Positions 15,159 through 58,311 are shown, counted from the stretch's first letter. The stretch is 64,000 nt of DNA from Candidatus Iainarchaeum sp. (GCA_043808155.1 JAZDFD010000028.1:17870-81869); one strand, 5' to 3'. Translations and numbers: made by a program. The notes: generated by a model not told the origin, from the letters alone.

Positions 15159-16444
15159 CTGCAAAAAAAGAAACAATTAAGAAAGCAGCTGCAACGAAGA
15201 CAGTAGTGAAGGTAACTAAAGCAATGGTAAAAACAACTGCTAAAACTGACAAAACCGAAAAGACAAAGAAAAAAACAAAAGCAGAAATAAAAGAAAATGA
15301 AATTGAATCCAGTTATAAAGAAGAACTCTGGGAAAGTTCACCAATACCAAAAATCGTGCTTGATGAAATTGCAATACTTGCAGAAAATAAAAAACTTTCA
15401 AAAGAAAAAACAGACAGACTTATTGATCAGGTTAAACACAGATGGAACTGGCTTAAGGCTGAGCCTGGTGAATGTGTTGGAATAATTGCAGCACAAAGTT
15501 TAGGTGAACCAGGAACACAGTTAACACTAAGAACAAAGCACTATGCAGGTGCTGCTGAAGTTTCCGTTGGTTCAGGAATTCAGAGAGTTGAGGAAATTGT
15601 TGATGGTAGAAGCAAAGCAAAATATCCTACAATGACAATTTACTTAAATGATGACATCAGAGGGAATGAGGCAGCTGCAACAAAGTTTGCAAAATTATTA
15701 ATTGATGTCAGAATTCAGGATGTTGTAAAATTATACGAGGATTTTGAGAAAAATAAATTTACACTTGAACTGTTAGAAGATGAAATTAAAGACAGAAATT
15801 TTGATGAAAAAGAACTTCTTGAAATAATAAAAGAAAATGTTAAAGGCGTGAAAGGAAAGCAGAGAAAAAATACTATTGAATTTGAATTCCCTTCAAAAGA
15901 ACCGCTCTTGAAAATAAGAAAAATTATTTTGAAACTTATGAAAGTGAAAGTTCACGGAATTAAAGGAATTGACAAAACAATTGTTTCTGAAAAAAACGGA
16001 GAATACAGAATTAAAACATCCGGAAGCAACCTTAAAGCAGTTCTAAAGATGAAAGAAATTGACCCCACAAGAACAATCACAAATGACATTATGGAAATAT
16101 GTAAAGTTTTGGGTTTAGAAGCAGGAAGAAGAATGGTTGTGCAGGAATTAACAAGAACACTTGATGAAAATGATATTCGTGTTGATGTAAGACACCATAT
16201 ACTTTTAGCAGATGCCATGACATTCCAGGGAGAAATCAAAGGAATTGTCAGAACAGGAATTACAAGAGGCAAAAGCAGTCCTTTCGCAAGAGCGGCATTT
16301 GAAGAAACCACAAAACATTTGCTTGATGCGGCATTCAAAGGCGAAGTGGAATATTTACAGGGTGTTGTTGAAAACATCATAGTTGGACAGCCGATTAAAG
16401 TTGGTACTGGAATCGTGGAATTAGTTATGAGAGAACAGAAATAG
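15155..16444 (+). CDS. rpoA2: RNA polymerase subunit A'' (Rpo1C) with Lys/Thr-rich N-terminal extension
   Basis: [10 protein letters not shown] trigger-loop region, [17 protein letters not shown]. Confidence 0.95.
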
Positions 16445-18304: not shown

Positions 18305-20497
18305 ATGGCTAAGAAAGAAGACGTTGTTGCAATGGCAGCAAAGCTTATGGGGAACAGACAGAACATCCGAAACCTCGGTATTGTTGCACATATTGATCAT
18401 GGAAAAACTACAATGACAGACTCATTAGTTGCATCTTCAGGATTAATTTCTGAAGAATTAGCAGGCAAACAGCTTTTCATGGATCACTATGAATTAGAGC
18501 AGGAAAGAGGAATAACAATTAATGCAGCAAATATTTCAATAACTCACAATTATAACAACCAAGAATATTTGATTAATATTATTGATACACCAGGACACAT
18601 TGACTTTGGTGGAGATGTTATCAGAGCAATGCGTGCTGTTGACGGTGTAATTGTTGTTGTTGATGCAGTTGAAGGTGTTATGCCTCAGACTGAAACTGTA
18701 ATAAGACAGGCATTGAAAGAATATGTTAAACCAGTTTTATTCATTAACAAAGTTGACAGATTAATTAATGAACTGCAGGTAACTCAGGAAGAAATGCAGC
18801 AGAGATTTGTAAAAACAATTGCCGGCGTAACAAATCTGATTAAGAAAAACATTCCAAAAGAATTTGGAAATGAATGGATCCCTAATGTTGAAAACGGATC
18901 AGTTGTATTTGGATCAGGATATTACAAATGGGCAATTTCAGTTCCGCAAATGAAAAAAAAGAATATATCATTCAAAGATATTTATGATCATTTAAAACAG
19001 GAAAAACAGAAAGAACTTAGCAAGAAAATTCCTCTTGCTGAACCAATGCTTGAGATGGTTATTAATCACTTGCCTAATCCATTAACAGCACAAAAATACA
19101 GAACACAGGCAATATGGAAAGGAGACATTGAAAGTGAAGTTGGGAAAGCTATGATGACTTGTGACCCAAATGGTCCTTTTTCAATGATGGTTACAGATGT
19201 GTCTGTTGATCAGCATGCAGGAGATGTTGCAACAGGGAGAATTTATTCAGGAACTTTAAGAAAAGGTTCAAGAGTAAAACTTATTGGTGGGCAGAAAGAA
19301 GCAGTAATTCAGCAGGTCGGTGTGTTCATGGGCCCAGAAAGAGTTCCAATGGACGAAGTATCTGCAGGAAATATTGCAGCATTAGTTGGGTTAAGAGATG
19401 TTTATACTGGTGAAACACTTTCAAGTGTTGATATGTCTGAATTTGAAAGCTTCAAATCAACAACAGAACCAGTTATTACTATTAGTGTTGAAGCAAAACA
19501 CACAAAAGATTTACCAAAACTAATTGAAGTTTTAAGACAAATTACAAAGGAAGACCCGAATGTAATAGCATCACTTAATCAGGAAACAGGCGAACATCTA
19601 ATTTCAGGAATGGGTGAACTTCACCTGGAGGTTACACAGCACAGAATAAGCCACGATCACAAAGTTGAGATTAATGTTGGTAATCCAATTGTTGTTTACA
19701 GAGAAACTATAAATAATGAATCTGATATTTTAGAAGGTAAAAGTCCTAACAAACACAACAAACTGAAAATGTATGTTGAGAGATTGCCTGATGAAATTAT
19801 TGAAAAATTAAAAGATACAAAGCTTGAAGGAAAACTAAAAGCAAAAGACAAAGAAGTTGTTGCAAAATTAGAAGAAGCAGGCTTTGGACGGGATGAAGCA
19901 AAGAAAGTGTGGGCAATACACAACAATTGTGTGTTGGTGGACATGACACGTGGTATTCAGGCATTGCACGAAATTAAAGAACTTGTTATTGAGGGATTTA
20001 TTGATGCCATGAAACAGGGGCCACTAGCAAAAGAAAAATGCTTTGGGGTAAAAGTTATACTAGATGATGCAAAATTACACGAAGATGCAATTCACAGAGG
20101 ACCTGCACAGATTCTTCCAGTAATGACAAGAACAATTTACGCATGTATGCTTTCAGCAGACCCAGTACTTCTTGAACCTAAACAAATTCTTACTTTAAGT
20201 GTTCCGGAAGATAATTTGGGTTCTGCATCAAAAGAATTGAGTTCCAGAAGAACACAAATTAATGAGATGAGAACTGAAGGTGACTCAAATATCATTATTG
20301 CAAAAGTCCCTGTAAAAGAAATGATTGGGTTTTCACAATCAATAAGAGGTGCAACCCAAGGACGTGCACTCTGGACTGCAGAATATGCTGGTTACGAAGA
20401 ATTACCAAGAGAACTTCAGCATAATGTTGTTACGGAAGTAAGAAAGAGAAAAGGAATGGACCCAACAGTAAAACCATACCATTTCTTTTTGGAATAA
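18305..20497 (+). CDS. fusA: Elongation factor aEF-2
   Basis: AHIDHGKTT, ERGITI, DTPGH, diphthamide loop HEDAIHRGPAQ. Confidence 0.97.
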   Translation: MAKKEDVVAMAAKLMGNRQNIRNLGIVAHIDHGKTTMTDSLVASSGLISEELAGKQLFMDHYELEQERGITINAANISITHNYNNQEYLINIIDTPGHIDFGGDVIRAMRAVDGVIVVVDAVEGVMPQTETVIRQALKEYVKPVLFINKVDRLINELQVTQEEMQQRFVKTIAGVTNLIKKNIPKEFGNEWIPNVENGSVVFGSGYYKWAISVPQMKKKNISFKDIYDHLKQEKQKELSKKIPLAEPMLEMVINHLPNPLTAQKYRTQAIWKGDIESEVGKAMMTCDPNGPFSMMVTDVSVDQHAGDVATGRIYSGTLRKGSRVKLIGGQKEAVIQQVGVFMGPERVPMDEVSAGNIAALVGLRDVYTGETLSSVDMSEFESFKSTTEPVITISVEAKHTKDLPKLIEVLRQITKEDPNVIASLNQETGEHLISGMGELHLEVTQHRISHDHKVEINVGNPIVVYRETINNESDILEGKSPNKHNKLKMYVERLPDEIIEKLKDTKLEGKLKAKDKEVVAKLEEAGFGRDEAKKVWAIHNNCVLVDMTRGIQALHEIKELVIEGFIDAMKQGPLAKEKCFGVKVILDDAKLHEDAIHRGPAQILPVMTRTIYACMLSADPVLLEPKQILTLSVPEDNLGSASKELSSRRTQINEMRTEGDSNIIIAKVPVKEMIGFSQSIRGATQGRALWTAEYAGYEELPRELQHNVVTEVRKRKGMDPTVKPYHFFLE

Positions 20498-26622: not shown

Positions 26623-27573
26623 ATGAGAGCAATCTTTATTGTACTTGGAATCTTATTGATGGCGTACAGTACACAAGCATATGAATGTTCAAATATACAA
26701 ATTGATGTAACTGATTTTGAATTAGACGCAGGAACCACAGAATACAAGGTTTTTGAACTTTGGAATGTTTCCGGAAGTGATTTTTACATAGAATATGCAG
26801 AAGTTTATGATTATAGTTCTGATTTTAGAGCAGAAAATGTGAGATATGATTCTTTTATTGAAGCACATGGATTTGCGGAAATTAAAGTGAAAGTTAAGGC
26901 AAATGAAATTGCAGAGGATGCAAAAGGCACAGGATATGTGATTATTAGAGGATTTTTCGCAGATGAAAAGAGATGTTATACTGATGAGCTGAGGAATGAA
27001 TTTGAAGTGAGTGTGAGCGGCAATCCAAGATTCGCAATTCAGGAATATATTGAAAATGAAGAATTCAAAGTGAGAATTCCAGAGTATTTCTTAGGGAAAC
27101 TCAATGAAGAAGTGAAAATGCCGATTGAAATTTACAATAAAACCAATGAAAGAGTGGAAATTTCATTTATGGGACAAGATGCCAAAGTTACGCCTCAAAA
27201 CATCTCAGTACCAAGAAATTCTGTGATAAAGACAGATTTGACCGTGATTTTGTATTCGACCCAGGCAGAAATCAGCTATTCAAACACCTTTTTCGGTTCT
27301 GGAAATACAATTCTCTTTGCTGAAAGGGAAGAAATAGCTGTTCCTTCAGTTCCCGATGTGCAGATAATTGAGGAAATTGAAGAAAATGGGGCTGAAGAAG
27401 CTCAAGAAGTGCCTGCTGAAAAGAGCGAGGATGTGGATTTAATTTCAGAAGCATTCAACACTGGATTTGCTACTTTGAGCTCAGGATATGGCATGATTTT
27501 GATTATATTGGTTGCTTTTGCAGCACTGCTTTATTTGCTGTTTTCAGACAGAAAAGAGCAGAGTTTGATTTAA
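26623..27573 (+). CDS. Secreted, C-terminally anchored surface protein
   Basis: Signal peptide, beta-rich body, acidic linker, TGFA motif, TM helix, short tail. Confidence 0.7.
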   Translation: MRAIFIVLGILLMAYSTQAYECSNIQIDVTDFELDAGTTEYKVFELWNVSGSDFYIEYAEVYDYSSDFRAENVRYDSFIEAHGFAEIKVKVKANEIAEDAKGTGYVIIRGFFADEKRCYTDELRNEFEVSVSGNPRFAIQEYIENEEFKVRIPEYFLGKLNEEVKMPIEIYNKTNERVEISFMGQDAKVTPQNISVPRNSVIKTDLTVILYSTQAEISYSNTFFGSGNTILFAEREEIAVPSVPDVQIIEEIEENGAEEAQEVPAEKSEDVDLISEAFNTGFATLSSGYGMILIILVAFAALLYLLFSDRKEQSLI

Positions 27574-27614
27574 AAACCTTCGCACGGCAATATATTATAC
27601 TTAAAATGTAAACT

Positions 27615-29591: not shown

Positions 29592-30014
29592 ATGGCTGCA
29601 GAAAAAAAAGTGAAAAAGGAAACAAAAGAAAAGAAAGCAGTCAAAGAAACAAAGAAAGCTGGAAAAACACCAGTAAAAGAAAAGAAAGACGATAAAAAAA
29701 CTGAGAAAGTTAAACAGCTCTCAGCAAAAGAAACAACATCAAGTGAAGTTAAAGGTAAATTTTATTCAATTGTGAAACACCCTTTGATTTCAGAAAAAGC
29801 AGTTGGGATGATTGAAACACAAAACAAATTAACTTTTGTTATTGAAAAAGGTTTTACTAAAAGTGAAGTTAAAAGGGCAGTAGAACAAATGTATAATGTA
29901 AAAGTTGACCGCGTCCAAGTAGTTAATGATATGAAAGGAAGGAAAAAAGCAATTGTTAGAATAAACAAACAATACCGCGCAGATGAAATTGCAACAAAAT
30001 TAGGGATATTGTAA
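29592..30014 (+). CDS. rpl23: Ribosomal protein uL23 with K/E-rich N-extension
   Basis: PLISEKA...NKLTF...KKAIVR; synteny. Confidence 0.93.
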   Translation: MAAEKKVKKETKEKKAVKETKKAGKTPVKEKKDDKKTEKVKQLSAKETTSSEVKGKFYSIVKHPLISEKAVGMIETQNKLTFVIEKGFTKSEVKRAVEQMYNVKVDRVQVVNDMKGRKKAIVRINKQYRADEIATKLGIL

Positions 30015-30024
30015 GGTGTAAATT

Positions 30025-30102
30025 TTGAAAAACCATAATTATTACTGTGGCATTGAAAATGCCACACATAAATCGGAGTACCCGTACGAAATCGGGTTGT
30101 GA
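30025..30102 (+). repeat. Junction repeat copy A, within a 25-aa mini-ORF (TTG start)
   Basis: AATTATTAC-GTGGCATT/AATGCCAC-ACATAAATCGGAGTACCCGTACGAAATCGGGT; reads MKNHNYYCGIENATHKSEYPYEIGL*. Confidence 0.88.
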
Positions 30103-30106
30103 TAAC

Positions 30107-30838
30107 ATGCCTGGAAGACTAAAAACACAAAGAAGAGGTAGAGGGACTCCGAGATACCTGGCCTCAAATAAGGGGATTACATGTACATATATTAATTATA
30201 CAGATGAACAAAAGAAAGATGTATTATTTGGCGAAGTTATTAGTTTGATAAAAACAACTGCAAGAAACAGTATTGTTGCAATTGAGAGATTTATAATAGA
30301 CGGTAAGGAAACAGACTCACAAGTAATAGCTGCAGAAGGGTTAAGTGTTGGTCAGAAAATCCAATACGGGACTAATGCAGAACTTGCAATCGGAAATGTT
30401 TTACCACTTTCGAAGATTCCGGAGGGGTGCCCTATATTCAATATTGAAAAAGAAAGTGGGGATGGCGGAACATTTGTAAAAAGCAGCGGGATTTACGCAA
30501 TATTAGTTACAAAGGACAAGAAAAATGCTTACATTAAATTACCATCAGGAAAAACAAAACCATTCACCCTCTTGGCAAGAGCAACAATTGGATGTTCAGC
30601 ATGCGGTGGAAGAACTGAAAAACCTTTCGTCAAAGCAGGAGCCAAATATTTTGCAATGAAAAGAAAAAGGAAAATGTGGCCAGTTGTAAGAGGTGTTGCA
30701 ATGAACGCAGCATACCACCCACACGGTGGTGAACAGCACCATGTTGGTAAGAGTAAGTCTGTATCAAGACACGCTTCACCAGGAAGAAAGGTTGGTGCAA
30801 TTGCTTCGAAGAGAACAGGAAGGAAAAAGAAAAACTAG
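30107..30838 (+). CDS. rpl2: Ribosomal protein uL2
   Basis: QRRGRG N-terminus, VRGVAMNAAYHPHGG, PGRKVG. Confidence 0.95.
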   Translation: MPGRLKTQRRGRGTPRYLASNKGITCTYINYTDEQKKDVLFGEVISLIKTTARNSIVAIERFIIDGKETDSQVIAAEGLSVGQKIQYGTNAELAIGNVLPLSKIPEGCPIFNIEKESGDGGTFVKSSGIYAILVTKDKKNAYIKLPSGKTKPFTLLARATIGCSACGGRTEKPFVKAGAKYFAMKRKRKMWPVVRGVAMNAAYHPHGGEQHHVGKSKSVSRHASPGRKVGAIASKRTGRKKKN

Positions 30839-30848
30839 GGTGTGTTAG

Positions 30849-31256
30849 ATGGCAAGAGTAGAAGAAACATGGCGCGGTAAAAAGATCGAAGATCTTAAAT
30901 CAATGGATATTTCAGAATTTATGAAATTGATAGATTCAAGAGCAAGAAGAAGTATGAAAAGAGGTTTTGATAAAAAGCTCATGAAACAGATTGACAATTA
31001 TGCTGAAAAAATCAAAGATGGAAAATACCAAAAACCAATAAAAACACACCTGAGAGACACGATTGTGATTCCAAAAATGCTGGGACTTAAATTTGCAGTT
31101 TACAGAGGAAACAAGTTTGAGGATATTGACATCGTACCAAATATGCTCGGGCATTTTTTGGGTGAATTTGCACTTACAAGAAAAAGACTTCAGCATGGAA
31201 AGGCAGGAATTGGTGCAACAAGATCAAGTACTGCACTGAAGACAAAGAGAGTCTAA
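30849..31256 (+). CDS. rps19: Ribosomal protein uS19
   Basis: IKTHLRD, MLGHFLGEF, GIGATRSS. Confidence 0.95.
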   Translation: MARVEETWRGKKIEDLKSMDISEFMKLIDSRARRSMKRGFDKKLMKQIDNYAEKIKDGKYQKPIKTHLRDTIVIPKMLGLKFAVYRGNKFEDIDIVPNMLGHFLGEFALTRKRLQHGKAGIGATRSSTALKTKRV

Positions 31257-31264
31257 TGTGAAAA

Positions 31265-31403
31265 ATGATGATTAAGAAATATGAAAAAGCGGGTTATGAC
31301 AGTGCCATCGCAGATGGCACGCGGAGCACCCCGTACGCAACCCTATTTCAACTCAGGGTTGAAATGGGCGCATTTCACAAAAAAGTGAAATAGCGTCGAG
31401 TAG
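31265..31403 (+). repeat. Junction repeat copy E with inserted double-hairpin module, overlapping a 42-aa mini-ORF (31265-31393)
   Basis: GTGCCATC/GATGGCAC stem, CGGAGCACCCCGTACG core, module shared with 8557-8609. Confidence 0.82.
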
Positions 31404-31412
31404 TGATTGAAA

Positions 31413-31886
31413 ATGGCTAAAAGAGAATATCAGAAAAAAGTGAAAAATGAAGCAAAGATTGCAAAAGCGATAGCTGCGAATAAGCCAATTTCAGTTAAAT
31501 ATGCGACAGAAATGTGCAGAGAAATTAAGGGAAGACCTGTAAACAAAGTTGAGAAATTTTTAAACAGAATAATGAACAAAGAGGATTTCTTACCTCTTAA
31601 AAGATATGTGAAGAAAGTAGCACACAGAAAAGGTGACTCAAAATCAGGAACTAAAACAGGAAAATATCCAATAAGAGTTGCAAATGCATTTCTTGAACTT
31701 ATTCAAACTGCAAAAGCAAATGCAGATTTCAAAGGCATTGATACAGAATCGCTTTTGGTTTATCATGCATTTGCATCAACAGGTTTCAGAAGACACAGTG
31801 CACAGGCAAAAGGTCACATCGGCGGAAAGCGCAGAAGAAGTAAATCAACACATATTGAAATCATGCTTATAGAGGGAAAAAAATGA
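31413..31886 (+). CDS. rpl22: Ribosomal protein uL22
   Basis: ISVKYATEMCREIKG, GKYP, THIEI. Confidence 0.94.
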   Translation: MAKREYQKKVKNEAKIAKAIAANKPISVKYATEMCREIKGRPVNKVEKFLNRIMNKEDFLPLKRYVKKVAHRKGDSKSGTKTGKYPIRVANAFLELIQTAKANADFKGIDTESLLVYHAFASTGFRRHSAQAKGHIGGKRRRSKSTHIEIMLIEGKK

Positions 31887-32845
31887 TTGAAAGAACATTT
31901 ATCAAACAGGCAATGAAAAAAATAGAGCTTGAGAAGTACATGAGAACCAATCTTGACAAAGCAGGGTTTACACACTTAGACATTGTGAAAACACCGTTGG
32001 TTACAAGAATCGTGCTTAATGTTACAAAACCAGGTCTGGCAATTGGAAAAGGCGGACAGACAATAAGACAACTTACAGAAGATATTGAAACAAAATTTGG
32101 AATTAACAATCCTCAGATAGAAATTAAGGAAATTGAAAATCCAACATTAGATGCACAGGCAACAGTTGACAAAATGGTTGCATTACTTGAAAGAGGTTTC
32201 AGCTGGAGAAGTATTGCATTCAGAACTGTAAAAGACATTATGGCTGCAGGTGCGCAGGGTTGTGAACTTGTGCTTAGCGGAAAATTAACAGGAAAAGGCG
32301 GAAGAAAAAGAAAGCAGAGAATTGCAGAAGGATATATGAAAAAAGTTGGACACCAAACAGAGTTAGTTGATTATGCAAAAAAATCCGCATACCCAAAAGC
32401 AGGTGCAATTGGAATTAAATTGAGAATAATTAAACCAGGAGTACAGTTCCCAGATAAAATAAAAATCAATGACATAATCACAAAGAAAAAAGCTCCTATC
32501 GTAGAAAAAGAAAATGCAGATGCTGGAAAAACAGAAGTTACTGGTATCAAAGAAGAAGTGAAAATCGAAGTTAAAGAAAAAACTGAAAAGAAAGCAGAAG
32601 TTAAAGTTGAGAAGAAAGATAAGAAACCAGTAGCATATAAAAAAGATGCTAAAAAAGAAGTGACGAACGAAAAGAAAACAGATAAAAAGGAAGCAAAGAA
32701 ATTTGATAAACCAAAAGAAGAAAAGAAAAAATCAGATGACAAGAAAGAAACCAAAGTGAAAGAAGAAAAAGTTGACGACAAAAAAACTGAAAAGAAAGAA
32801 GTGAAAAAAGAAGATAAAAAATCAGATGAGAAAAAAGATAAGTGA
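31883..32845 (+). CDS. rps3: Ribosomal protein uS3 with long K/E/D C-tail
   Basis: KPGLAIGKGG KH motif, GAQGCELVLSGKL. Confidence 0.95.
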   Translation: MIERTFIKQAMKKIELEKYMRTNLDKAGFTHLDIVKTPLVTRIVLNVTKPGLAIGKGGQTIRQLTEDIETKFGINNPQIEIKEIENPTLDAQATVDKMVALLERGFSWRSIAFRTVKDIMAAGAQGCELVLSGKLTGKGGRKRKQRIAEGYMKKVGHQTELVDYAKKSAYPKAGAIGIKLRIIKPGVQFPDKIKINDIITKKKAPIVEKENADAGKTEVTGIKEEVKIEVKEKTEKKAEVKVEKKDKKPVAYKKDAKKEVTNEKKTDKKEAKKFDKPKEEKKKSDDKKETKVKEEKVDDKKTEKKEVKKEDKKSDEKKDK

Positions 32846-32850
32846 TATTT

Positions 32851-32937
32851 ATGAATACGGGAAAAAATTATTACCGCAGTATCGAACGAAGTGAAGATAC
32901 TGCACATAAATCGGAGCACCCGTACGAAATCGGGTAG
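32851..32937 (+). repeat. Junction repeat copy B, within a 28-aa mini-ORF
   Basis: GCAGTATC/GATACTGC stem plus conserved core; reads MNTGKNYYRSIERSEDTAHKSEHPYEIG*. Confidence 0.9.
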
Positions 32938-32945
32938 TGATAGTT

Positions 32946-33155
32946 ATGACAAATAAAGAAGCTAAATCATTCAGGGAGCTTCCAAAAGAAGAACTGAATG
33001 AAAAATTAGTGGATTTGCAAACAGAGCTTGCAAAAGAAAGAGCAACAGTTGCGTCTGGTACGCGACCTGAAAATCCTGGGAACATCAGGAAGCTCAGAAG
33101 AAATATTGCAAGACTTAAAACAATAATTAATGAAAAAAATGAGGTGACTAAGTAG
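32946..33155 (+). CDS. rpl29: Ribosomal protein uL29
   Basis: ENPGNIRKLRRNIARLKT. Confidence 0.94.
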   Translation: MTNKEAKSFRELPKEELNEKLVDLQTELAKERATVASGTRPENPGNIRKLRRNIARLKTIINEKNEVTK

Positions 33156-33157
33156 CA

Positions 33158-33460
33158 ATGGAAGATATTTGTCCTAAATGCGGTCTCCCGCAAAACCTTT
33201 GTGTTTGCCAGGAGATTGCGAAGGAAAGCCAAAAAATAAAAATAAGAACTGACAAAAGAAGATTTGGTAAATTAGTGACAATTGTTTCGGGTTTGGATGA
33301 ATCAAAAAGTGCAGATCAATTATGCAAGGAACTAAAAAGAAAACTTGCGTGTGGTGGCACTGTGAGAAACTCGGAAATTTTATTGCAAGGAAACCATAGT
33401 AAAAAAGTGAAAGCCTTTCTGCTAAAGCAGGGATATAAAGAGGAATTAATTGATGATTAA
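33158..33460 (+). CDS. Translation initiation factor aIF1 (SUI1)
   Basis: CPKCGLP..LCVC, KRRFGK, LACGGTV, LQGNH. Confidence 0.93.
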   Translation: MEDICPKCGLPQNLCVCQEIAKESQKIKIRTDKRRFGKLVTIVSGLDESKSADQLCKELKRKLACGGTVRNSEILLQGNHSKKVKAFLLKQGYKEELIDD

Positions 33461-33764
33461 GGGAAAACATTATGAAATAACACAAAAAAATCTGCCTGCA
33501 CATGAGCTTATCGGGCTTAATGCAAAGGTTGTGAAAAGTGTTGATTCAAAAAAAACCGGAGTTAAGGGAAAAGTTGTAAATGAAACAAAAAATATTCTGG
33601 AATTGGAGAACAACAGCGTTATAAAAAAAATCCCGAAAAAAGAAGTTGTGTTTGAATTTGAAATTGGAAATGAAAAAATTATAATTGACGGAAAAATGTT
33701 AAATGAAAAACCAGAGAATCGTGTAAAGGAGTTTTGGAGGAAATACCATGGAAAACTGCAATGA
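33453..33764 (+). CDS. rnp1: RNase P protein Rpp29
   Basis: HELIGL, GKVVNETKN, IPK; synteny. Confidence 0.92.
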   Translation: MIKGKHYEITQKNLPAHELIGLNAKVVKSVDSKKTGVKGKVVNETKNILELENNSVIKKIPKKEVVFEFEIGNEKIIIDGKMLNEKPENRVKEFWRKYHGKLQ

Positions 33765-34083
33765 CCCAAAGTGCCCAAAATGCGGCAATATCAAAGTAAG
33801 GGGCAATATTTTCACAGGTATTGTAACATCTGCAAAAGCAGATAAGACAGTCACTGTTGAAAGACAGTTAGTTAAAAAAGTTAGAAAATATGAAAGATAC
33901 AAAAAAATAAGATCCAAAATCCATGCACACAATTCAAAATGTGTTTCAGCAAAAGAAGGCGACACAGTAAGAATTGGAGAAACAAGAAAATTAAGCAAAA
34001 CAAAAAGTTTTGTTGTGATGGACATTCTTAACAAAGGGTCAGATGAAAAGCCAAAAACAGATAAGAAAAAGGTGAAAAAATGA
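33748..34083 (+). CDS. rps17: Ribosomal protein uS17
   Basis: CNDPKCP, KYERY, ETRKLSKTK. Confidence 0.95.
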   Translation: MENCNDPKCPKCGNIKVRGNIFTGIVTSAKADKTVTVERQLVKKVRKYERYKKIRSKIHAHNSKCVSAKEGDTVRIGETRKLSKTKSFVVMDILNKGSDEKPKTDKKKVKK

Positions 34084-34478
34084 AAGCAATCAGCGCCAGA
34101 AGGACCATGGGTTTAACACAAAAAAGCAGATGCGTTTGCGCAGACAACTCAGGCGCAAAAGAGGTTGAAATCATCACAGTTTTTGGTCACAAATCAAGAA
34201 AAAAGATGAGTCCAAAAGGCGGAATCGCAGATATGGTTAATGTTGTTGTAAAAAAAGGAAAACCCGAAATCAGAAAAAAAGTTGAGCGTGCAGTTATTGT
34301 AAGAGTGAAACAAGAATACAGAAGAGCAAATGGCATGAGAGTAAAATTCGAAGACAATGCAGTTGTTCTTGTGGATAATAAGGGAATTCCTAAAGGAAGT
34401 GAAATTAAAGGTGCAGTTGCAAAAGAAGCTGCAGAAAGATGGGTAAAAATCGGGGGCATTGCCTCAGTAGTAGTATAG
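34080..34478 (+). CDS. rpl14: Ribosomal protein uL14
   Basis: CADNSGAK, FEDNAVV. Confidence 0.95.
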   Translation: MKAISARRTMGLTQKSRCVCADNSGAKEVEIITVFGHKSRKKMSPKGGIADMVNVVVKKGKPEIRKKVERAVIVRVKQEYRRANGMRVKFEDNAVVLVDNKGIPKGSEIKGAVAKEAAERWVKIGGIASVVV

Positions 34479-34487
34479 GTGGATTAA

Positions 34488-34964
34488 ATGAAAAGCTCAA
34501 AACCAAGAAAACAAAGAAAAGCGCTTTACACAAGAACTGTTCATAAAAAACAGAATGACTTAGCAGGGCATCTGAGTAAAGAACTCAGAAAAGAGCTGAA
34601 ACAAAGATCAATTCCTCTGAGAAAAGAAGACAAAGTTAAGATTATGAGAGGGTCACACAAGGCAAGAGAAGGAAAAATAATTGATGTTAATTACACCAAG
34701 GGATTTGTGTATATTGAAAAAGTTATCAGAAAAAAGGCAGACGGAACTGAAGTGCCGGTGCCGGTAAGAGCGTCAAATGTAATGGTTGTTGGCCTTTACA
34801 GAGATGATGACAGAAGAATTAAAAGAAAAACTCTGAAAAAAGTCACAAAATCCGAAAAAAAAGACAAGAAAGAAAAAGCTTATGACAAAAAAGCATATAC
34901 AAAAGTGAAAGAAGAGAAATCTGAAAAAAAGGAAGATAATAAAGCTAAGGCGAAGGTGAAATAA
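34488..34964 (+). CDS. rpl24: Ribosomal protein uL24 with K/E C-tail
   Basis: SSKPRKQRK, LSKELR, DKVKIMRG. Confidence 0.94.
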   Translation: MKSSKPRKQRKALYTRTVHKKQNDLAGHLSKELRKELKQRSIPLRKEDKVKIMRGSHKAREGKIIDVNYTKGFVYIEKVIRKKADGTEVPVPVRASNVMVVGLYRDDDRRIKRKTLKKVTKSEKKDKKEKAYDKKAYTKVKEEKSEKKEDNKAKAKVK

Positions 34965-35683
34965 TGGCTAAAAAAGGAAGCAAAAAATCAGAAAAAAGAA
35001 TAAGCACTGATAAAGTCAGAAACATAAAGAAAAAAGAAAAAACATGGACAATAAAGGCAGAGCCAGGACCTCACAAAAAATCAACTTCCGTACCTTTAGG
35101 TTTTATTTTGAGAGACCTTCTTGAAGTAGCACAAAATTTGAGAGAAGTTAAACAGATACTTAACAGTAAAAGCGTCAAAGTAGACGGAACTTTAAGAACA
35201 AGTTACAGATTCCCTGTAGGTCTTTTCGATGTTGTTTCATTCAACAAAGATAAAAAAGGCTACAGATTAGTTTATGATTTTAAAGGCAGATTAATGGTCA
35301 AGGAAATTGAAGGCAAAGAACTTAACAAAAAAATATGTAAAATTACTAATAAAAAAACAGGGAAAACAGGAATTACTGAACTTGTAACAAATGATGGAAG
35401 AATATTCAAAGAAAAAAATGCGAAATACAAAGTTGGTGATTCATTAGAAATTGAACTTCCCGGCCAGAAAATTTCAAAGTCACTTGAATTCGCAAAAGGG
35501 AACACAGCATATGTTTCAGGCGGAACGCACATTTCAGCAATGGGAAAAATAACAGAAATTGTTGCAGGAACAATGAAAAGAAAAACACTTGTTACATTGA
35601 AGACTGCAGACAAAGAAGAGTTCAGTACAACTGAAAATAACATAATTGTTATTGGTAAAGAGAAAGGGGAAATAGATATTTAA
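34964..35683 (+). CDS. rps4e: Ribosomal protein eS4
   Basis: PGPH, VKVDG, FPVGLFDV. Confidence 0.94.
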   Translation: MAKKGSKKSEKRISTDKVRNIKKKEKTWTIKAEPGPHKKSTSVPLGFILRDLLEVAQNLREVKQILNSKSVKVDGTLRTSYRFPVGLFDVVSFNKDKKGYRLVYDFKGRLMVKEIEGKELNKKICKITNKKTGKTGITELVTNDGRIFKEKNAKYKVGDSLEIELPGQKISKSLEFAKGNTAYVSGGTHISAMGKITEIVAGTMKRKTLVTLKTADKEEFSTTENNIIVIGKEKGEIDI

Positions 35684-35699
35684 AATTAGAGTGAGTTTT

Positions 35700-36212
35700 A
35701 TGACAGAAAATACAATGCGCACAATCATTGTCGAGAAAGTTACTGTAAATATGGGTGTAGGCCAAGCTGGCGACGAACTCAAAAAATCAAAAACAGTAAT
35801 TGAGACAATTACAGGTGCAAAAGCAATTGAAACAAAGTGTAAAGTTAAACAACCAAAATGGGACATCAGACCAGGTTTACCTATTGGAATTAAAGTTACA
35901 CTTAGAAAAAAACAGGCAACTGACTTTTTGAAACGTGCGATTAATGCAAAGCAAAACATAATCAAAAAAAAGAGTTTTGATATGCAGGGTAACTTCGGAT
36001 TTGGAATCAAAGAACATATTGATCTTCCAGGAGTTAAATATGACCCTAAATTAGGAATACGGGGTCTTGATGTTTTAGTAACACTTAAAAGAAACGGACA
36101 GCGTGTTAAGAAAAGAAAAATTGCAAAAACAAAAATTGGCAAAAAGCACATAATAACAAAAAAAGACGCAATGCAATTCATGAAAGAACAATTTGGAGTT
36201 GAAGTTGAATGA
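35700..36212 (+). CDS. rpl5: Ribosomal protein uL5
   Basis: [26 protein letters not shown]. Confidence 0.95.
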
Positions 36213-36379
36213 GTTCCAAAACAAAAGGTCCAAAAAAAGATCTAAAAAAAGAAAAACAAGCAAGAGTATGCACAAATTGCGGGACTAGAAATGCAATCAT
36301 AAGAAAATACAATCTCAATGTCTGCAGAAGATGCTTTAAAGAATTAGCAGAAAAATTAGGCTTTAGGAAATATGGTTAA
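36209..36379 (+). CDS. rps14: Ribosomal protein uS14 (absent from the ORF track)
   Basis: Manual translation, 56 aa: CTNCG...[26 protein letters not shown]. Confidence 0.93.
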
Positions 36380-36395
36380 ATGAGGGGTGGTAAAA

Positions 36396-36788
36396 ATGAC
36401 ATTAGTAGATCCAATAGCAAACGCAATGATAAGCATTAAGAATAGCGACATTGCCTCAAAAAAAGAATGTATATTTCGACCTGCATCAAAACTTCTGGGA
36501 AAAATCTTAGAAGTTATGCAAAAAAAAGGATACATCGGAATTTATGAATTCATAGATGACGGACAAGAAGGTATTTACAAAATAGAACTTAAAGGAAAAA
36601 TTAATGATTGTAAAGCAATAAAGCCAAGATATGCAGTTAAGAAAGATGGATTTGAAAAATTTGAAAAAAGATATTTACCTTCAAAGGATGTTGGAATTTT
36701 GATTGTTTCAACACCAGAGGGTGTATTAACACATAAAGAAGCAAAGGAATCCAATGTCGGGGGCAGATTATTAGCTTATATTTATTAA
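36396..36788 (+). CDS. rps8: Ribosomal protein uS8
   Basis: [27 protein letters not shown]. Confidence 0.95.
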
Positions 36789-36799
36789 TGGTGTTTTGA

Positions 36800-37342
36800 A
36801 TGAAAACAGGATTTGTGGAAGAAATAATTGAAGTGCCGGAAGGCATTGAATGTGAAATTCAGAAAAAGACAGTTACTGTTAAGAAAGGAGATAAAACAAT
36901 CACAAAAACATTTGATATGATTGGAGTAGTTTTCAAAAAAGAAGGGAACAGAGTTCAGATTTCCACAAAATATCCTAAGAAAAAAACTGCAGCAATGCTG
37001 AAAACAGCAGCGGCTCATTTGAAAAATATGATTAACGGACTTCAGGAAGAATATGTGTATAAGCTCGCAATTATTTATTCACACTTTCCAATGACTGTTA
37101 CAGTTAAAGATGGATTTTTAGAAATAAACAACTTTGCAGGTGAGAAAAAAACCAGAAAAGCAAAGATTATGGCTAATACAAAAGTTGAAGTTAAGGGGAA
37201 AGAAGTTACAGTTAGATCACATAACAAGGAAAATGCAGGTCAGACTACGGCAAATATTGAATCTGCAACAAAAGTAAAAGGAAAAGATAAAAGAATTTTT
37301 CAAGATGGCATTTGGATTACTGAAAAACCAAAGAAAAGATAA
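36800..37342 (+). CDS. rpl6: Ribosomal protein uL6
   Basis: YSHFPM, NFAGEK, DKRIFQDGI. Confidence 0.95.
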   Translation: MKTGFVEEIIEVPEGIECEIQKKTVTVKKGDKTITKTFDMIGVVFKKEGNRVQISTKYPKKKTAAMLKTAAAHLKNMINGLQEEYVYKLAIIYSHFPMTVTVKDGFLEINNFAGEKKTRKAKIMANTKVEVKGKEVTVRSHNKENAGQTTANIESATKVKGKDKRIFQDGIWITEKPKKR

Positions 37343-37353
37343 TGGGTGAAAAC

Positions 37354-37905
37354 ATGGCAACTGCAGAAAAACACAAAACTGATAAAAAAGAAGTGACGAA
37401 AGCAAAGAAAACATCAGTTACAACAAAAAAAGCAGATACTAAAACAAAAACTGCAGAAAAAAAAGAAACAACTGCAAAGAAAAAAACTGCAGAAAAAAAA
37501 CCAGGTGCTAAAAAAACAATTAAAAAAAGCAGTGCTGCAAAAAAAGCACAGGCATTAATTAAAAAGAAAGTTAAGAAACCAAGTTTCAGAGGAAGATTTG
37601 GTTCGAGAAAATTCAGAAGAAAAAGTAACGCAAAATGGGACAAATGGAGAAAACCGCGTGGTATTGATATCAAAGACACCCAGGAAAACGGAACTAGTCC
37701 AAGAACAGGTTATGGTACTTGCAAACTCATAAAGACTATGCACCCTTCAGGATATTATGAAAAAATGATATTTAATCCAAGAGATTTGGACGGTATTGAT
37801 GCAGAAAGATTTGCATTGAGAATTTCAGCAGGTGTAGGAAAGAAAAAAAGGTCTGAAATTGCAAAAAAAGCAAGGGAAATGGGACTACGTATTTTAAACA
37901 GGTGA
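37354..37905 (+). CDS. rpl32e: Ribosomal protein eL32 with long K/T/A-rich N-extension
   Basis: WRKPRGID, HPSG, VGKKKR. Confidence 0.93.
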   Translation: MATAEKHKTDKKEVTKAKKTSVTTKKADTKTKTAEKKETTAKKKTAEKKPGAKKTIKKSSAAKKAQALIKKKVKKPSFRGRFGSRKFRRKSNAKWDKWRKPRGIDIKDTQENGTSPRTGYGTCKLIKTMHPSGYYEKMIFNPRDLDGIDAERFALRISAGVGKKKRSEIAKKAREMGLRILNR

Positions 37906-37909
37906 AAAA

Positions 37910-37987
37910 ATGATTTACAAAAAAAATTATTACCGTGGGATTGTAAATCCCACACATAAATCGGAGCACCCGTACGAAATCGGGTAG
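37910..37987 (+). repeat. Junction repeat copy C, within a 25-aa mini-ORF
   Basis: GTGGGATT/AATCCCAC stem plus core; reads MIYKKNYYRGIVNPTHKSEHPYEIG*. Confidence 0.9.
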
Positions 37988-37996
37988 GTGAAATGA

Positions 37997-38437
37997 ATGA
38001 AACTAGACCAAGTAAAGAGATTAGCCGCAGATGTTCTTAACGTGGGCGTAACCAGAATATGGATTGACCCTAAAGAAGTTGGGAATGTTGCAGAAGTTAT
38101 TACAAAAGATGATGTAAGAGCTTTAGTTGCAGACGGAGTAATCAAGAAAAGAAGAGTGCAGGCACAAAGCCACGGCCATGCACGTTTATTAGCTGAAAAG
38201 AAAAGTAAAGGTCTGAAAAAAGGAAAAGGTAAAAGAAAAGGAAAAGTTAATGCAAGAACACATAGAAAGAAAAAGTGGATTAAAACAGTCCGTGCACAAA
38301 GAGATGAACTTAAAAAACTTAAAACAGAAAACCCTGAAGCAGTTGCAGAAGCAAATTACCATTCTATTTACAGAAGAATAAAAGGCGGATATTACAAAGG
38401 TAGAAAATACGTGAGAAGCGCAGTACTTAAGAAGTGA
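37997..38437 (+). CDS. rpl19e: Ribosomal protein eL19
   Basis: KRLAADVL.VG..RIWIDP, GKRKG, WIKTVRAQR. Confidence 0.94.
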   Translation: MKLDQVKRLAADVLNVGVTRIWIDPKEVGNVAEVITKDDVRALVADGVIKKRRVQAQSHGHARLLAEKKSKGLKKGKGKRKGKVNARTHRKKKWIKTVRAQRDELKKLKTENPEAVAEANYHSIYRRIKGGYYKGRKYVRSAVLKK

Positions 38438-38442
38438 TGATT

Positions 38443-38547
38443 ATGAATTTAGAAGAAAATTATTACCGTGGTTTTGAGCAAAACGAAAAACCACACATAA
38501 CTCGGAGCACCCGTACGAAATCGGGTAGTGCAATACTTAAGAAGTGA
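38443..38547 (+). repeat. Junction repeat copy D, within a 34-aa mini-ORF and flanked by a duplicated rpl19e 3' end
   Basis: GTGGTTTT/AAAACCAC stem plus core; TACTTAAGAAGTGAT at 38424 and 38534. Confidence 0.9.
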
Positions 38548-38553
38548 TAAATT

Positions 38554-39141
38554 ATGGCAAACAAAGCAACATACGATGTTCAATTCAAAAGAAGAAGCAA
38601 TGGTAAAACCAATTACAAAAAAAGACTGGCATTAGTTAAATCAGGAAAGCCAAGATTAGTTGTAAGGAAAACCAACAGCAGAATAATTGTACAGATTATT
38701 GCATATGAGAGACCCGGTGACAAGGTTATTGTAAGTGCAACATCAGTACAGCTTAAAAAATATGGCTGGGCAGGAAACAAAAATATACCTTCAGCATATT
38801 TAACAGGATTACTTTGCGGAATGCGCGCAAAAGAAGCAAAAATTAATCAAGCAGTTTTAGATATTGGATTTAGAACACCTGTTCACATGTCAGTTCCATT
38901 CGCAGCACTAAAAGGTGCACTGGATGCAGGGCTTGACATTCCATTTGATGAAACCGCACTTCCAAAAGAAGACAGAATCACAGGAAAACATATTGAAAAC
39001 TATGCAAATTCATTGGATAGCGAAGAAATTAACAAAAAGTTTTCAAAAATGATTAAAAATAATGTAAATCCAAAAGAAATTACAAAAATATTCCAAAATA
39101 CTAAAGAGAAAATTGTGGGAAACAGTAATGTAAAAGAGTGA
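38554..39141 (+). CDS. rpl18: Ribosomal protein uL18
   Basis: GKTNYKKRL, RLVVRKTN, AYLTGLLCG. Confidence 0.95.
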   Translation: MANKATYDVQFKRRSNGKTNYKKRLALVKSGKPRLVVRKTNSRIIVQIIAYERPGDKVIVSATSVQLKKYGWAGNKNIPSAYLTGLLCGMRAKEAKINQAVLDIGFRTPVHMSVPFAALKGALDAGLDIPFDETALPKEDRITGKHIENYANSLDSEEINKKFSKMIKNNVNPKEITKIFQNTKEKIVGNSNVKE

Positions 39142-45871: not shown

Positions 45872-45987
45872 GCAGGAGTACCAAAGTGGTTAAATGGGCG
45901 GGACTTAAGATGTTATTATGAAGTCATTAAAATCATGGGAAATCCCGTGGCTTAGTGCCTCCGCAGGTTCGAATCCTGCCTCCTGCA
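45872..45987 (+). tRNA. tRNA-Leu(TAA) with 32-nt intron at 37/38 (45910-45941)
   Basis: GCAGGAG/CTCCTGC acceptor stem, CGGGA-CTTAAG/A-TCCCG anticodon arm, long variable arm, GGTTCGAATCC; BHB with CTTA/TGGG helix; CCA not encoded. Confidence 0.93.
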
Positions 45988-54871: not shown

Positions 54872-55378
54872 ATGAATATCGTGATTTCAAATCCAAAAAC
54901 AGGCAAAGCATACAGTAAAAAAACAGAAACCCCTGTGTTCATAGGAAGCAAAGTCGGAGACGAAGTTTCACTTGATGTTGTTGGTCTTTCAGGCTACAAA
55001 GTGAAAATTCTTGGAGGTTCAGATAAACAAGGTTTCCCAATGAAACCTACATTACCAGGAACTGGAAGAAAACGAGCTTTGCTTTCAAAAGGTACTGGCT
55101 TCAATCCCACATCAAAAGGGCAAAGGAAAAGAATCAGTGTGCGAGGTAACGAAATAAACGAAAACATCAGCCAATTGAATGTTATTATAACAAAAATGGG
55201 TGATGCGGATATTGACATGTTACTTGGAAAGAAAGAAGAAAAAGCTGAAGCAGGAACTGAAGAGAAAACAGAAGATAAAGCTGAGAAAAAAGAAGATGCT
55301 AAACCTGAAAAGAAAAAAGAAGAAAAGAAAGATGTAAAAACAGATGAAACAAAAAAAGATATGAAAAAGCAGAAGTAA
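54872..55378 (+). CDS. rps6e: Ribosomal protein eS6 with K/E C-tail
   Basis: ISNPKTG, GGSDKQGFPM, VRGN. Confidence 0.94.
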   Translation: MNIVISNPKTGKAYSKKTETPVFIGSKVGDEVSLDVVGLSGYKVKILGGSDKQGFPMKPTLPGTGRKRALLSKGTGFNPTSKGQRKRISVRGNEINENISQLNVIITKMGDADIDMLLGKKEEKAEAGTEEKTEDKAEKKEDAKPEKKKEEKKDVKTDETKKDMKKQK

Positions 55379-55422
55379 AAGAAAAAGCAGAAAAATAGTT
55401 TAAATTAAAACAGGTAAATTTC

Positions 55423-57876: not shown

Positions 57877-58311
57877 ATGAAAGTTAATATTGTTAGTAAA
57901 CAGAAGAATCCACTTCTCCACAGAGAAGAAATAGAATTTGAAATCAACAAAGCAAAAACAACTCCTTCGCGGAAAGAACTTAGAGAACAGATTGCAGCAT
58001 TATGCAATGCAGACTCAGAACTCGTGATAATTGACGATGTTAGACATAGCTTTGGAACAGATTATGTCAGAGGAAAATCCAGAGTTTATGAAAGCAAAGA
58101 AGGTTTATCCAAAAGCGAGTTAGCATACAAAGTAAAAAGACATTCTGAAAAGAAAAAAGAAGTAAAAGAGGAACCCTCAAAACCTAAAGCAGGAACTGAA
58201 AAGAAATCAGAAGAAAAGAAAGAAGATGCTAAACCTGCAGAAGATAAAAAAGAAAAGAAAGAAGATGCTAAATCAGGAAAAAAACCGGAAGCAAAACCTG
58301 AAATGAAATAA
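57877..58311 (+). CDS. rps24e: Ribosomal protein eS24 with K/E C-tail
   Basis: NPLLHREE, TPSR, FG. Confidence 0.93.
   Translation: MKVNIVSKQKNPLLHREEIEFEINKAKTTPSRKELREQIAALCNADSELVIIDDVRHSFGTDYVRGKSRVYESKEGLSKSELAYKVKRHSEKKKEVKEEPSKPKAGTEKKSEEKKEDAKPAEDKKEKKEDAKSGKKPEAKPEMK

Follow-up and report, generated by a model that had tools for sequence, protein, structure and literature searches.

MIRUs are bacterial repeats that typically occur in tandem arrays, and the MITEs and the REP/BIME, Correia, ERIC and RUP repeats are non-coding sequences of less than about 150 nucleotides (nt) that are multi-copy, hairpin-forming and intergenic, are co-transcribed with operons and are polymorphic between close relatives; Rickettsia palindromic elements are found as in-frame insertions in protein genes. 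MIRUs are the closest described phenomenon to the element reported here, a repeat of about 60 nt lying between ribosomal-protein genes in a stretch of 64,000 nt from Candidatus Iainarchaeum sp. (GCA_043808155.1, JAZDFD010000028.1:17870-81869), hereafter called the window. According to a 2025 review (PMC12548453), MIRUs appear to insert at start codons and carry an internal open reading frame (ORF) whose coupling to the gene keeps the effect on expression to a minimum. MIRU ORFs are also reported with a -4 overlap to the downstream gene. Our element shares with them the position of a short repeat between co-oriented operon genes, apparent insertion at start codons and, less clearly, an ORF in the operon direction that lies close against the flanking genes, and in this aspect its mini-ORFs are a new instance of a known idea. 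It differs in being archaeal, in having single copies in the window, gaps of 4-19 nt and a frame that varies between copies, in taking its start and stop codons from a long and variable target-site duplication, and in a two-hairpin pseudoknot fold that is found also at tRNA ends and in tRNA introns; the comparison is one of description, not of sequence.

We propose, with a probability of about 0.72, that the mini-ORFs arise mainly as a by-product when a small, mobile element, structured but non-coding, inserts and duplicates the Shine-Dalgarno (SD) sequence, start codon or stop codon of its neighbours, and that they encode no conserved peptide. The element family is more interesting than the mini-ORFs, and it is only partly explained.

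The ribosomal-protein operon of the window is on the plus strand and encodes, according to Pfam, L23, L2, S19, L22, S3, L29, L32e, L19e and L18. The repeat is present at five junctions, whose flanking genes are, by their Pfam identities, L23/L2, S19/L22, S3/L29, L32e/L19e and L19e/L18; these junctions measure 92-156 nt each, and the repeat-free ones are tight (a gap of 10 nt between L2 and S19, an overlap of L22 with S3, and a gene starting 2 nt after L29). A 21-nt core of the repeat has 4 matches in the window and 0 in 100 shuffles. All junction repeats (5/5) are oriented with the operon and lie in a short ORF that takes up almost the whole gap, and each copy has an SD-preceded start upstream of it. 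A sequence-only reading of the window had already reported these five mini-ORFs, and ORF listing recovers every one of them where that reading placed it. Its spacings are borne out as well: the SD-preceded starts, put at 4-10 nt past the upstream stop, lie at 10 (L23/L2), 8 (S19/L22), 5 (S3/L29), 4 (L32e/L19e) and 5 nt (L19e/L18), and the stops precede the next start by 4 (L23/L2), 8 (S3/L29), 9 (L32e/L19e) and 6 nt (L19e/L18), all within the 10 nt reported, and by 19 nt at S19/L22, the junction of the ORF of 42 amino acids (aa). An ATG start holds for mini-ORFs 2-4 but not for mini-ORF 1.

The host genome (G000; 1.08 Mb, 35% GC, 35 contigs, 88% complete) and 61 genomes of the same order were searched with a covariance model, R1, built without the pseudoknot. 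Window copies are numbered 1 (30025), 2 (32851), 3 (37910), 4 (38443) and 5 (the mini-ORF at 31265), and their features are as follows.

30025-30102, plus strand: mini-ORF 1 at L23/L2, 25 aa, start codon TTG (ORF listing)
30025-30039 and 30040-30097, plus strand: A-rich leader and core of copy 1 (R1 match G000:C28:47909-47966, 80.7 bits)
31254-31415, plus strand: S19/L22 junction, a rearranged variant element with extra hairpins
31254-31267, plus strand: probable left duplicate at S19/L22, with S19 stop, SD and ATG (sequence reading)
31265-31393, plus strand: mini-ORF of copy 5 at S19/L22, 42 aa (ORF listing)
31401-31415, plus strand: probable right duplicate at S19/L22, with SD and the L22 ATG at 31413
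32841-32854, plus strand: left target-site duplicate at S3/L29, with S3 stop (32843-32845), SD and the ATG (32851) that starts mini-ORF 2
32851-32937, plus strand: mini-ORF 2 at S3/L29, nested in a GTG ORF from 32842
32855-32935, plus strand: inserted DNA at S3/L29, A-rich leader 32855-32868 and core 32869-32935 (R1 match G000:C28:50738-50804, 85.2 bits)
32936-32949, plus strand: right target-site duplicate at S3/L29, with SD and the true ATG (32946) of L29 (L29 by Pfam)
37900-37913, plus strand: left target-site duplicate at L32e/L19e, with L32e stop (TGA within GGTGA), SD and the ATG (37910) that starts mini-ORF 3
37910-37987, plus strand: mini-ORF 3 at L32e/L19e, 25 aa, stop TAG at 37985-37987
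37914-37985, plus strand: inserted DNA at L32e/L19e, A-rich leader 37914-37927 and core 37928-37985 (R1 match G000:C28:55797-55854, 81.8 bits)
37986-38000, plus strand: right target-site duplicate at L32e/L19e, with SD and the true L19e ATG (37997)
38417-38445, plus strand: left target-site duplicate at L19e/L18, 29 nt, with the last L19e codons and stop, SD and the ATG (38443) that starts mini-ORF 4
38443-38547, plus strand: mini-ORF 4 at L19e/L18, nested in a GTG ORF from 38434
38446-38526, plus strand: inserted DNA at L19e/L18, A-rich leader 38446-38460 and core 38461-38526 (R1 match G000:C28:56330-56395, 87.4 bits)
38527-38556, plus strand: right target-site duplicate at L19e/L18, 30 nt, with orphan L19e C-terminal codons and stop, then SD and the true L18 ATG (38554)

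Relatives that lack the element give the evidence for insertion. Four metagenome contigs (L050-L053), whose L19e is 80-92% identical, are without the element at both L32e/L19e and L19e/L18. At the former they run from a single AGGTGA...ATGA block straight into L19e, at the place where the window has the same block, a 14-nt A-rich leader, the element and the block again; at the latter the L19e C-terminal codons, stop, SD and L18 ATG are present once. The duplications at these two empty-site junctions are 14-15 nt (L32e/L19e) and 29-30 nt (L19e/L18) long. In contigs assembled from the public run X1, position 37908 is joined to 37996 (87 nt skipped) and 38444 to 38554, and a contig assembled from X5 joins 38437 to 38542. 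One X2 contig covers the filled L32e/L19e site with indels, including a 4-nt insertion in loop 1, from which it follows that the insertion is polymorphic among relatives. The element has therefore been inserted, with duplication of the target, at these two junctions. In the left-hand duplicates, the copied L19e start codon is the ATG at 37910 and the copied L18 start codon the one at 38443, and the SDs before them are likewise left-hand copies; since the empty sites show a single copy, the starts and stops of the mini-ORFs are duplicated pieces of the flanking genes and not features of the element.

The other junctions can be read in the same terms to different extents. The duplicates at S3/L29 (AGTGATATTTATGA versus AGTGATAGTTATGA) are 13/14 identical in a direct-repeat scan, and the stop TAG of mini-ORF 2 (32935-32937) spans the boundary between the element and the right duplicate. 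At S19/L22 the probable duplicates (14/15 nt) appear alike but diverged when read by eye, and copy 5 is a weak match of the family model (window 31295-31359, 22.6 bits, E 0.012). At L19e/L18 mini-ORF 4 ends in ...SAILKK, and its stop (38545-38547) is the right-hand copy of the L19e stop.

The following mechanism would account for these features. The element would insert through a staggered target cut of variable length; in a gene-dense genome (about 89% coding by a crude ORF call), the operon insertions that survive would be those at gene junctions, where duplication would copy the upstream stop, the SD and the downstream start. With the right-hand duplicate the real gene would retain intact translation signals, and the left-hand duplicate, orphaned, would drive translation of a short ORF into the element, which would run on through open sense frames and end with a TAG or TGA that arises at the SD junction or just beyond it. 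The mini-ORFs are presumably translated, and passing ribosomes may keep the next start accessible, a benefit that would let insertions persist; both translation and a benefit are thus plausible, along the lines proposed for MIRUs. The conserved fold would serve propagation of the element or some tRNA-linked role, rather than a peptide.

The reading frames of the element fit this scheme. In the canonical element, frame 0 (TAT TAC ...) has no stop before the junction, where one arises from the T of CGGGT with the AG or GA of the SD, or is given by the TGA in GGTGA; frame 1 is open with a GAAA-like loop 1, and reading in frame 2 is blocked by both the loop and the TAA of CATAA. Because an orphan SD and ATG are placed upstream and two sense frames are open, a bridging ORF is expected in about two of three frames. 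In the same way, the ATG lies exactly five codons before NYYR in three copies because in all three the duplication ends at the ATG and is followed by a 15-nt leader. One relative, L032, carries a 33-nt duplication that takes in the SD, the start and 7 codons of an oppositely oriented gene; the resulting mini-ORF crosses the element in reverse complement and ends 9 nt short of the second SD. Irrespective of how the element is oriented or which frame is read, it is the duplication that gives rise to the mini-ORF.

Duplications are not confined to the window. When the own genome and 27 other genomes are taken together, flanking direct repeats score at least 10 in 24/108 copies and in 0/108 of a reversed-flank control; these 24 clear duplications span 11-33 nt, and candidates of 7-8 nt fall in the range of the control. 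The right-hand duplicate mostly begins at the first base past ...CGGGT, and the left-hand one is separated from TATTAC by an A-rich leader of 0-40 nt. The element thus has one precise end (...CGGGT) and one ragged, A-rich end, and half-copies without one end also occur. The motif at the insertion point is weak (W at +1, G-rich from +2 to +4, A at +5). In L054, 32 nt of a gene 3' end are duplicated, and in L090 a gene C-terminus is replaced by the insertion. A perfect 20-nt flanking repeat is seen at G000:C1:46028-46087, downstream of tRNA-Arg(cct); it is identical to the last 20 nt of that tRNA, and a 3' piece of the tRNA is thereby orphaned. Tandem pairs or triplets with a period of 87-100 nt exist in the loci of three relatives only (L020, L030 and L056, genomes G018 and G010); in these arrays, which resemble variable-number tandem repeats, the repeated spacer scores as a "duplication".

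Across the whole host genome the mini-ORF is less regular than in the window. We considered 37 copies, 12 of them just upstream of a co-oriented gene and 25 others (more than 50 nt), and found an ORF spanning the element in sense in 24/37 and in antisense in 28/37. Among the 12 gene-proximal copies, 9 have a separate mini-ORF, 2 are in-frame gene fusions (C4:15980 and C24:19596) and 1 has none: G000:C1:17937 lies between co-oriented genes, with gaps of 8 and 10 nt, and has neither an upstream start codon nor a mini-ORF. The claim that each repeat copy lies in a bridging mini-ORF is thus right for the window (5/5) but does not extend to the genome, with C1:17937 and 2/12 fusions as exceptions. 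Separate mini-ORFs use frame 0 in window copies 1-4, C24:25856 and C11:922 and frame 1 in C31:6407 and C7:18778, window copy 5 being the variant; frame 1 or a shifted frame is used by C31:6407, C7:18778, C4:15980, C24:19596 and window copy 4. The mini-ORF overlaps a flanking gene only in C31:6407, C11:922 and L064, the gaps in the window being 4-19 nt.

This variety of frames bears on the view that the peptide HKSE(H/Y)PYEIG, or the act of translating it, is the product, either as a micro-protein family or as a leader-peptide attenuator, both of which the sequence-only reading had entertained. In its favour, NYYR...HKSE(H/Y)PYEIG is common to three window copies, and in three the ATG stands five codons before NYYR. 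These shared residues are the translation of a conserved pseudoknot module; the residue differences between copies are non-synonymous and track compensatory stem covariation, and frames 0, 1 and shifted ones are all used. The frame said to be preserved is kept in three window copies but left by copy 4, whose loop is 8 nt longer and which stays open only until the duplicated L19e stop. The five window peptides have no Pfam match, antisense ORFs are just as common, and in L032 the mini-ORF is on the opposite strand. Moreover, the insertion is absent at both tested junctions in 4/4 contigs with L19e 80-92% identical, as well as in the X1 and X5 contigs, which excludes a conserved leader-peptide control device at these junctions. 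We regard a functional peptide or attenuator as largely refuted and very improbable.

The two fusions show the element apparently read within proteins, as Rickettsia palindromic elements are; they differ from the latter in being only two cases, both at the extreme N-terminus, one of them with a possible alternative start downstream. In G000:C24:19582-20799 the element (19596-19661) appears to add 22 codons in frame behind codon 5 of a pyruvate:ferredoxin oxidoreductase alpha-like gene, whose POR_N domain begins at residue 42 and whose alignment with PDB 9bt4_B begins at residue 26, opposite chain residue 8. The ATG of this gene overlaps the upstream stop as ATGA. In G000:C4:15969-16250 an upstream ATG reads through the element (15980-16046) into an NAD-epimerase-like gene (MKRVLVSGGAGFIGSH...) as an in-frame N-terminal extension; the copy is flanked by a 7-nt repeat, ATGAAAA, and the true start of the gene is probably the second ATG.

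The family is defined by its fold. The element consists, in order, of an A-rich leader, TATTAC, hairpin 1 (its loop of GAA/GNRA type or longer), a linker of the CACATA type and hairpin 2; in own-genome copies the linker is followed by XCGG and four bases, and then by hairpin 2 with the loop (G/T)ACGX'AA(N), which pairs with the linker to form an H-type pseudoknot. In most family members the linker reads CGTATC or CATACT. Among 13 own-genome copies 91% of the cells are paired and 9 pairs have changed on both sides, which 0/500 shuffles reach. Among 73 copies from 27 other genomes 97.7% of the cells are paired, 14/16 pairs have changed on both sides and all 13 hairpin pairs covary; since that alignment was fitted to the two hairpins, the hairpin counts lean to the model, but the counts for the pseudoknot pair X:X', absent from the search model, do not (UA 35, GC 15, CG 3, other 1). 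Variant 3' modules of different sequence retain the linker-to-loop pairing, as judged by reading own-genome copies. G-U and A-C pairs number 11 and 9 among 895 cells of the other genomes, and 4 and 1 in the own genome: the fold is kept almost purely Watson-Crick, and the functional strand is not readable from these counts. An attempt to assign the strand from them gave no signal, also when copies were split by tRNA context.

In the own genome R1 has 46 matches with E <= 1, of which 37 reach E <= 1e-4, and it also has matches in 28/61 genomes of the order, across many families, leaving 33/61 without one. In Rfam 15 there is no match at the gathering score over the whole window, and the element is without a match even at E <= 10 (29950-33000). 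Viral contigs gave 0 matches to a degenerate core pattern, and no published description was found in the literature searched, supplements excluded; the element itself looks undescribed. A separate intergenic repeat of about 97 nt, in three copies of 84-94% identity (G000:C23:26334-26430, 26973-27068 and 27562-27610), is present between consecutive co-oriented genes near a TnpB gene.

Several observations weigh against taking the mini-ORFs as a by-product, and those on the ORFs are given here, those on tRNA-linked copies and mobility further below. At L23/L2 no clear target-site duplication was recognised around copy 1 (30025-30102) by sequence reading. The spacing and frame shared by three window insertions may equally come from coincidence, target choice or selection. 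A sense spanning ORF is present in 11/12 gene-proximal copies and in 13/25 others (Fisher p = 0.027, in a post hoc comparison of related copies), the closed frame 2 is used by 0/11, and L064, from another genome, has a frame-1 bridging ORF whose stop overlaps the next start as TAATG. The enrichment is a weak hint of selection for read-through. The comparison of copies inside operons with copies elsewhere had been suggested by the sequence-only reading; spanning ORFs are common elsewhere and in antisense.

Four window copies also have their stops within 4-9 nt of the following start codon, and there is the MIRU precedent (PMC12548453); taken together, these observations could point to a selected, translation-transparent design. 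Ribosomes would enter upstream, unwind hairpin 2 and the pseudoknot, stop beside the next SD and reinitiate, with operon stoichiometry depending on the mini-ORF. We consider this unlikely. The statistics behind it are post hoc and the sample is small; downstream genes retain a full SD and ATG in the right-hand duplicate, C1:17937 lies between co-oriented genes without any start codon, and an SD with a start stands upstream of only 12/31 putatively gene-proximal copies across genomes, a noisy classification with spurious downstream ORFs in tRNA contexts. The 4-nt insertion in loop 1 of the X2 allele would also bring the TAA of the linker into frame, if its other letters match the window. Of the translational coupling proposed for these junctions, read-through and delivery of ribosomes to the next gene are plausible, but coupling is not required where the downstream SD and ATG are intact; the reading of the repeat as translation-tolerant is supported, that of a designed device is doubtful.

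Besides operon junctions, the family is associated with tRNA genes. ARAGORN was run on the contexts (260 nt on each side) of 110 copies, 37 from the own genome and 73 from relatives; not every intron it predicts is reliable, and the copies are not independent. By this measure 49/110 copies are near a tRNA, and in 26/110 the 3' end of the element is 0-3 nt from a tRNA end or overlaps it by 1-4 nt; of these copies, 17 lie on the strand opposite to the tRNA and face its 3' end, and 9 share its strand and face its 5' end. A further class, 10/110, lies within predicted tRNA introns, 9 in antisense with the element 3' end 0-4 nt from the 5' splice site. In tRNA-Glu(UUC) the element occupies the same intron position in G000 and G049, which belong to different families: the intron, at position 37/38, is 98 nt in G000 (C26:73660-74000) and 89 nt in G049 (L021), and in each the reverse complement of the element follows directly on the first intron base. 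The two copies resemble each other in linker and hairpin 2, and hairpin 1 is wholly different yet complementary. Repetition of the anticodon loop in the tRNA-Glu intron was rejected as a sign of an element-made intron; it is a TTCGAA palindrome of the kind needed by the splicing helix. Gain of archaeal tRNA introns via mobile elements has been proposed (PMC3293823 among others), and our element is alike in lying in introns at or near the canonical position 37/38 with an end abutting the exon boundary; such reports deal with kilobase-sized elements that carry a recombinase, or with the transposition of introns, rather than with a pseudoknotted repeat of 60 nt.

Among the points against the by-product reading, two belong here: no duplication was detected at tRNA-abutting copies, and tRNA-linked copies are 98.6% Watson-Crick (342/347 cells) as against 95.6% for the rest, so that a portion of the family may have a function instead of being selfish. 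A search for duplications at copies lying tail-to-tail with a tRNA found none within 500 nt; its two top hits adjoin other tRNA genes and are best explained as paralogous tRNA sequence, the C1 hit being an adjacent tRNA-Pro gene.

It is in this setting that a functional host element has to be weighed, that is, an RNA or single-stranded DNA module for tRNA expression or processing (a trailer, leader, intron structure, terminator or processing signal), of which the operon copies would be spill-over. The 26/110 copies that abut tRNA ends, the 10/110 in introns, the shared tRNA-Glu(UUC) position with its changed but complementary hairpin 1 and the purer pairing of tRNA-linked copies all agree with it. 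We nevertheless find it doubtful. Orientation to transcription varies, the equal rarity of G-U (11) and A-C (9) pairs speaks against selection of the structure on just a single RNA strand, and 33/61 genomes of the order do without the element. RNase P RNA is present in the genome, so a substitute 5'-processing device is unneeded, and the role of an RNase P substitute was rejected. The CACATA linker is unlike the TTTAAATA-like boxes seen by sequence reading upstream of element-free tRNAs. An internal promoter in the CACATA(A/T) linker, about 25-30 nt from the 3' end, was rejected on this ground, and also because most members read CGTATC or CATACT and most tRNA-abutting copies point against the tRNA. 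The tRNA pattern may reflect target choice, survivorship or function.

A second conserved structured module, GC-rich, ends directly at the 5' end of tRNA-Trp, Pro(tgg), Arg(gcg), Val(tac), Glu(ctc), Ile(tat) and Cys in G000; it reads ...AGCTCGAGGAT(A/T)(T/G)(C/A)GCCT or ...CTCAAGGTTGTGGCCTTG. At G000:C1:10370-10612 a tRNA-Trp with a predicted intron of 169 nt has structured modules directly upstream.

What moves the element is the last point that weighs against the by-product reading, for no mobilising enzyme was found among RVT_1, Cas1, Y1 transposase and TnpB, other transposase families not having been searched. The own genome, at 88% completeness, has no match to RVT_1, Cas1 or Y1 transposase; its two TnpB genes are single-copy, unlinked to the element and have nothing in common with it. 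RVT_1 is present in 4/28 element-bearing and 4/33 element-free genomes, TnpB in 11/28 and 15/33, and the element-rich genomes G014 (2 contigs, 97% complete), G015 and G029 (single contigs, 99% and 94%) contain neither RVT_1 nor TnpB. Four candidate routes were accordingly rejected: retroposition by a resident reverse transcriptase and TnpB-driven mobility, for want of association with the element; casposons, for want of a Cas1 match in the own genome; and an IS200/IS605-type mechanism with a TTAC target, the empty sites being without TTAC (TATTAC arrives with the insertion) and Y1 transposase without a match.

The combination of a precise end, a ragged A-rich end and long variable duplications looks more like copy-in or target-primed insertion than like the cut-and-paste movement of a DDE transposon. 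The element is like a MITE in the features named at the outset but lacks terminal inverted repeats, its 5' A-rich leader with TATTAC and its 3' ...CGGGT not being reverse complements; moreover, its target duplication is variable (11-33 nt) instead of short and fixed, and no related transposase was found within the families just listed. Variable, sometimes long duplications, a precise and a ragged A-rich end, and half-copies recall SINE-like retroposons, from which it differs in having no poly-A tail and no RVT_1 in the own genome or in 24/28 element-bearing genomes. Together with the order-wide covarying fold, the pseudoknot and the docking at tRNA ends and splice sites within 0-3 nt, the long variable duplications and the lack of an identifiable enzyme point to an undescribed insertion mechanism.

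A broader picture can be drawn, which we hold tentatively. The element would be the first described member of an order-wide, pseudoknotted mobile family in small-genome archaea, whose precise 3' end docks at tRNA exon boundaries (5' end, 3' end and splice sites), which populates and perhaps founds tRNA introns and trailers, and which spreads without a recognisable transposase or reverse transcriptase, leaving duplications of 7-33 nt; each operon insertion would automatically build a translated bridging ORF that lets it survive. Archaeal tRNA intron gain becomes directly testable in these genomes.

For translation, the element offers an archaeal parallel to the idea put forward for MIRUs, in which a repeat invades an essential operon harmlessly; here the invasion would be harmless because the downstream ribosome-binding site is restored by the long target duplication, which also sets a short, putatively translated ORF across the insert. 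For annotation, the mini-ORFs should not be called genes or small proteins, and the apparent spacers of 60-130 nt in these operons, which are tightly packed elsewhere, are to be read as insertions.

Two further features of the window were recorded. Lys/Glu-rich low-complexity extensions occur at 32480-32845 (the S3 C-terminus), 37342-37600 (the L32e N-terminus), 55230-55390 and 58130-58310; such extensions, on ribosomal proteins and other genes, make up most of the "direct repeat" families in a scan of the window. A tRNA-Ser(tga) with a 32-nt intron, free of the element, lies at 45872-45987 (Rfam tRNA, 48.8 bits; ARAGORN).

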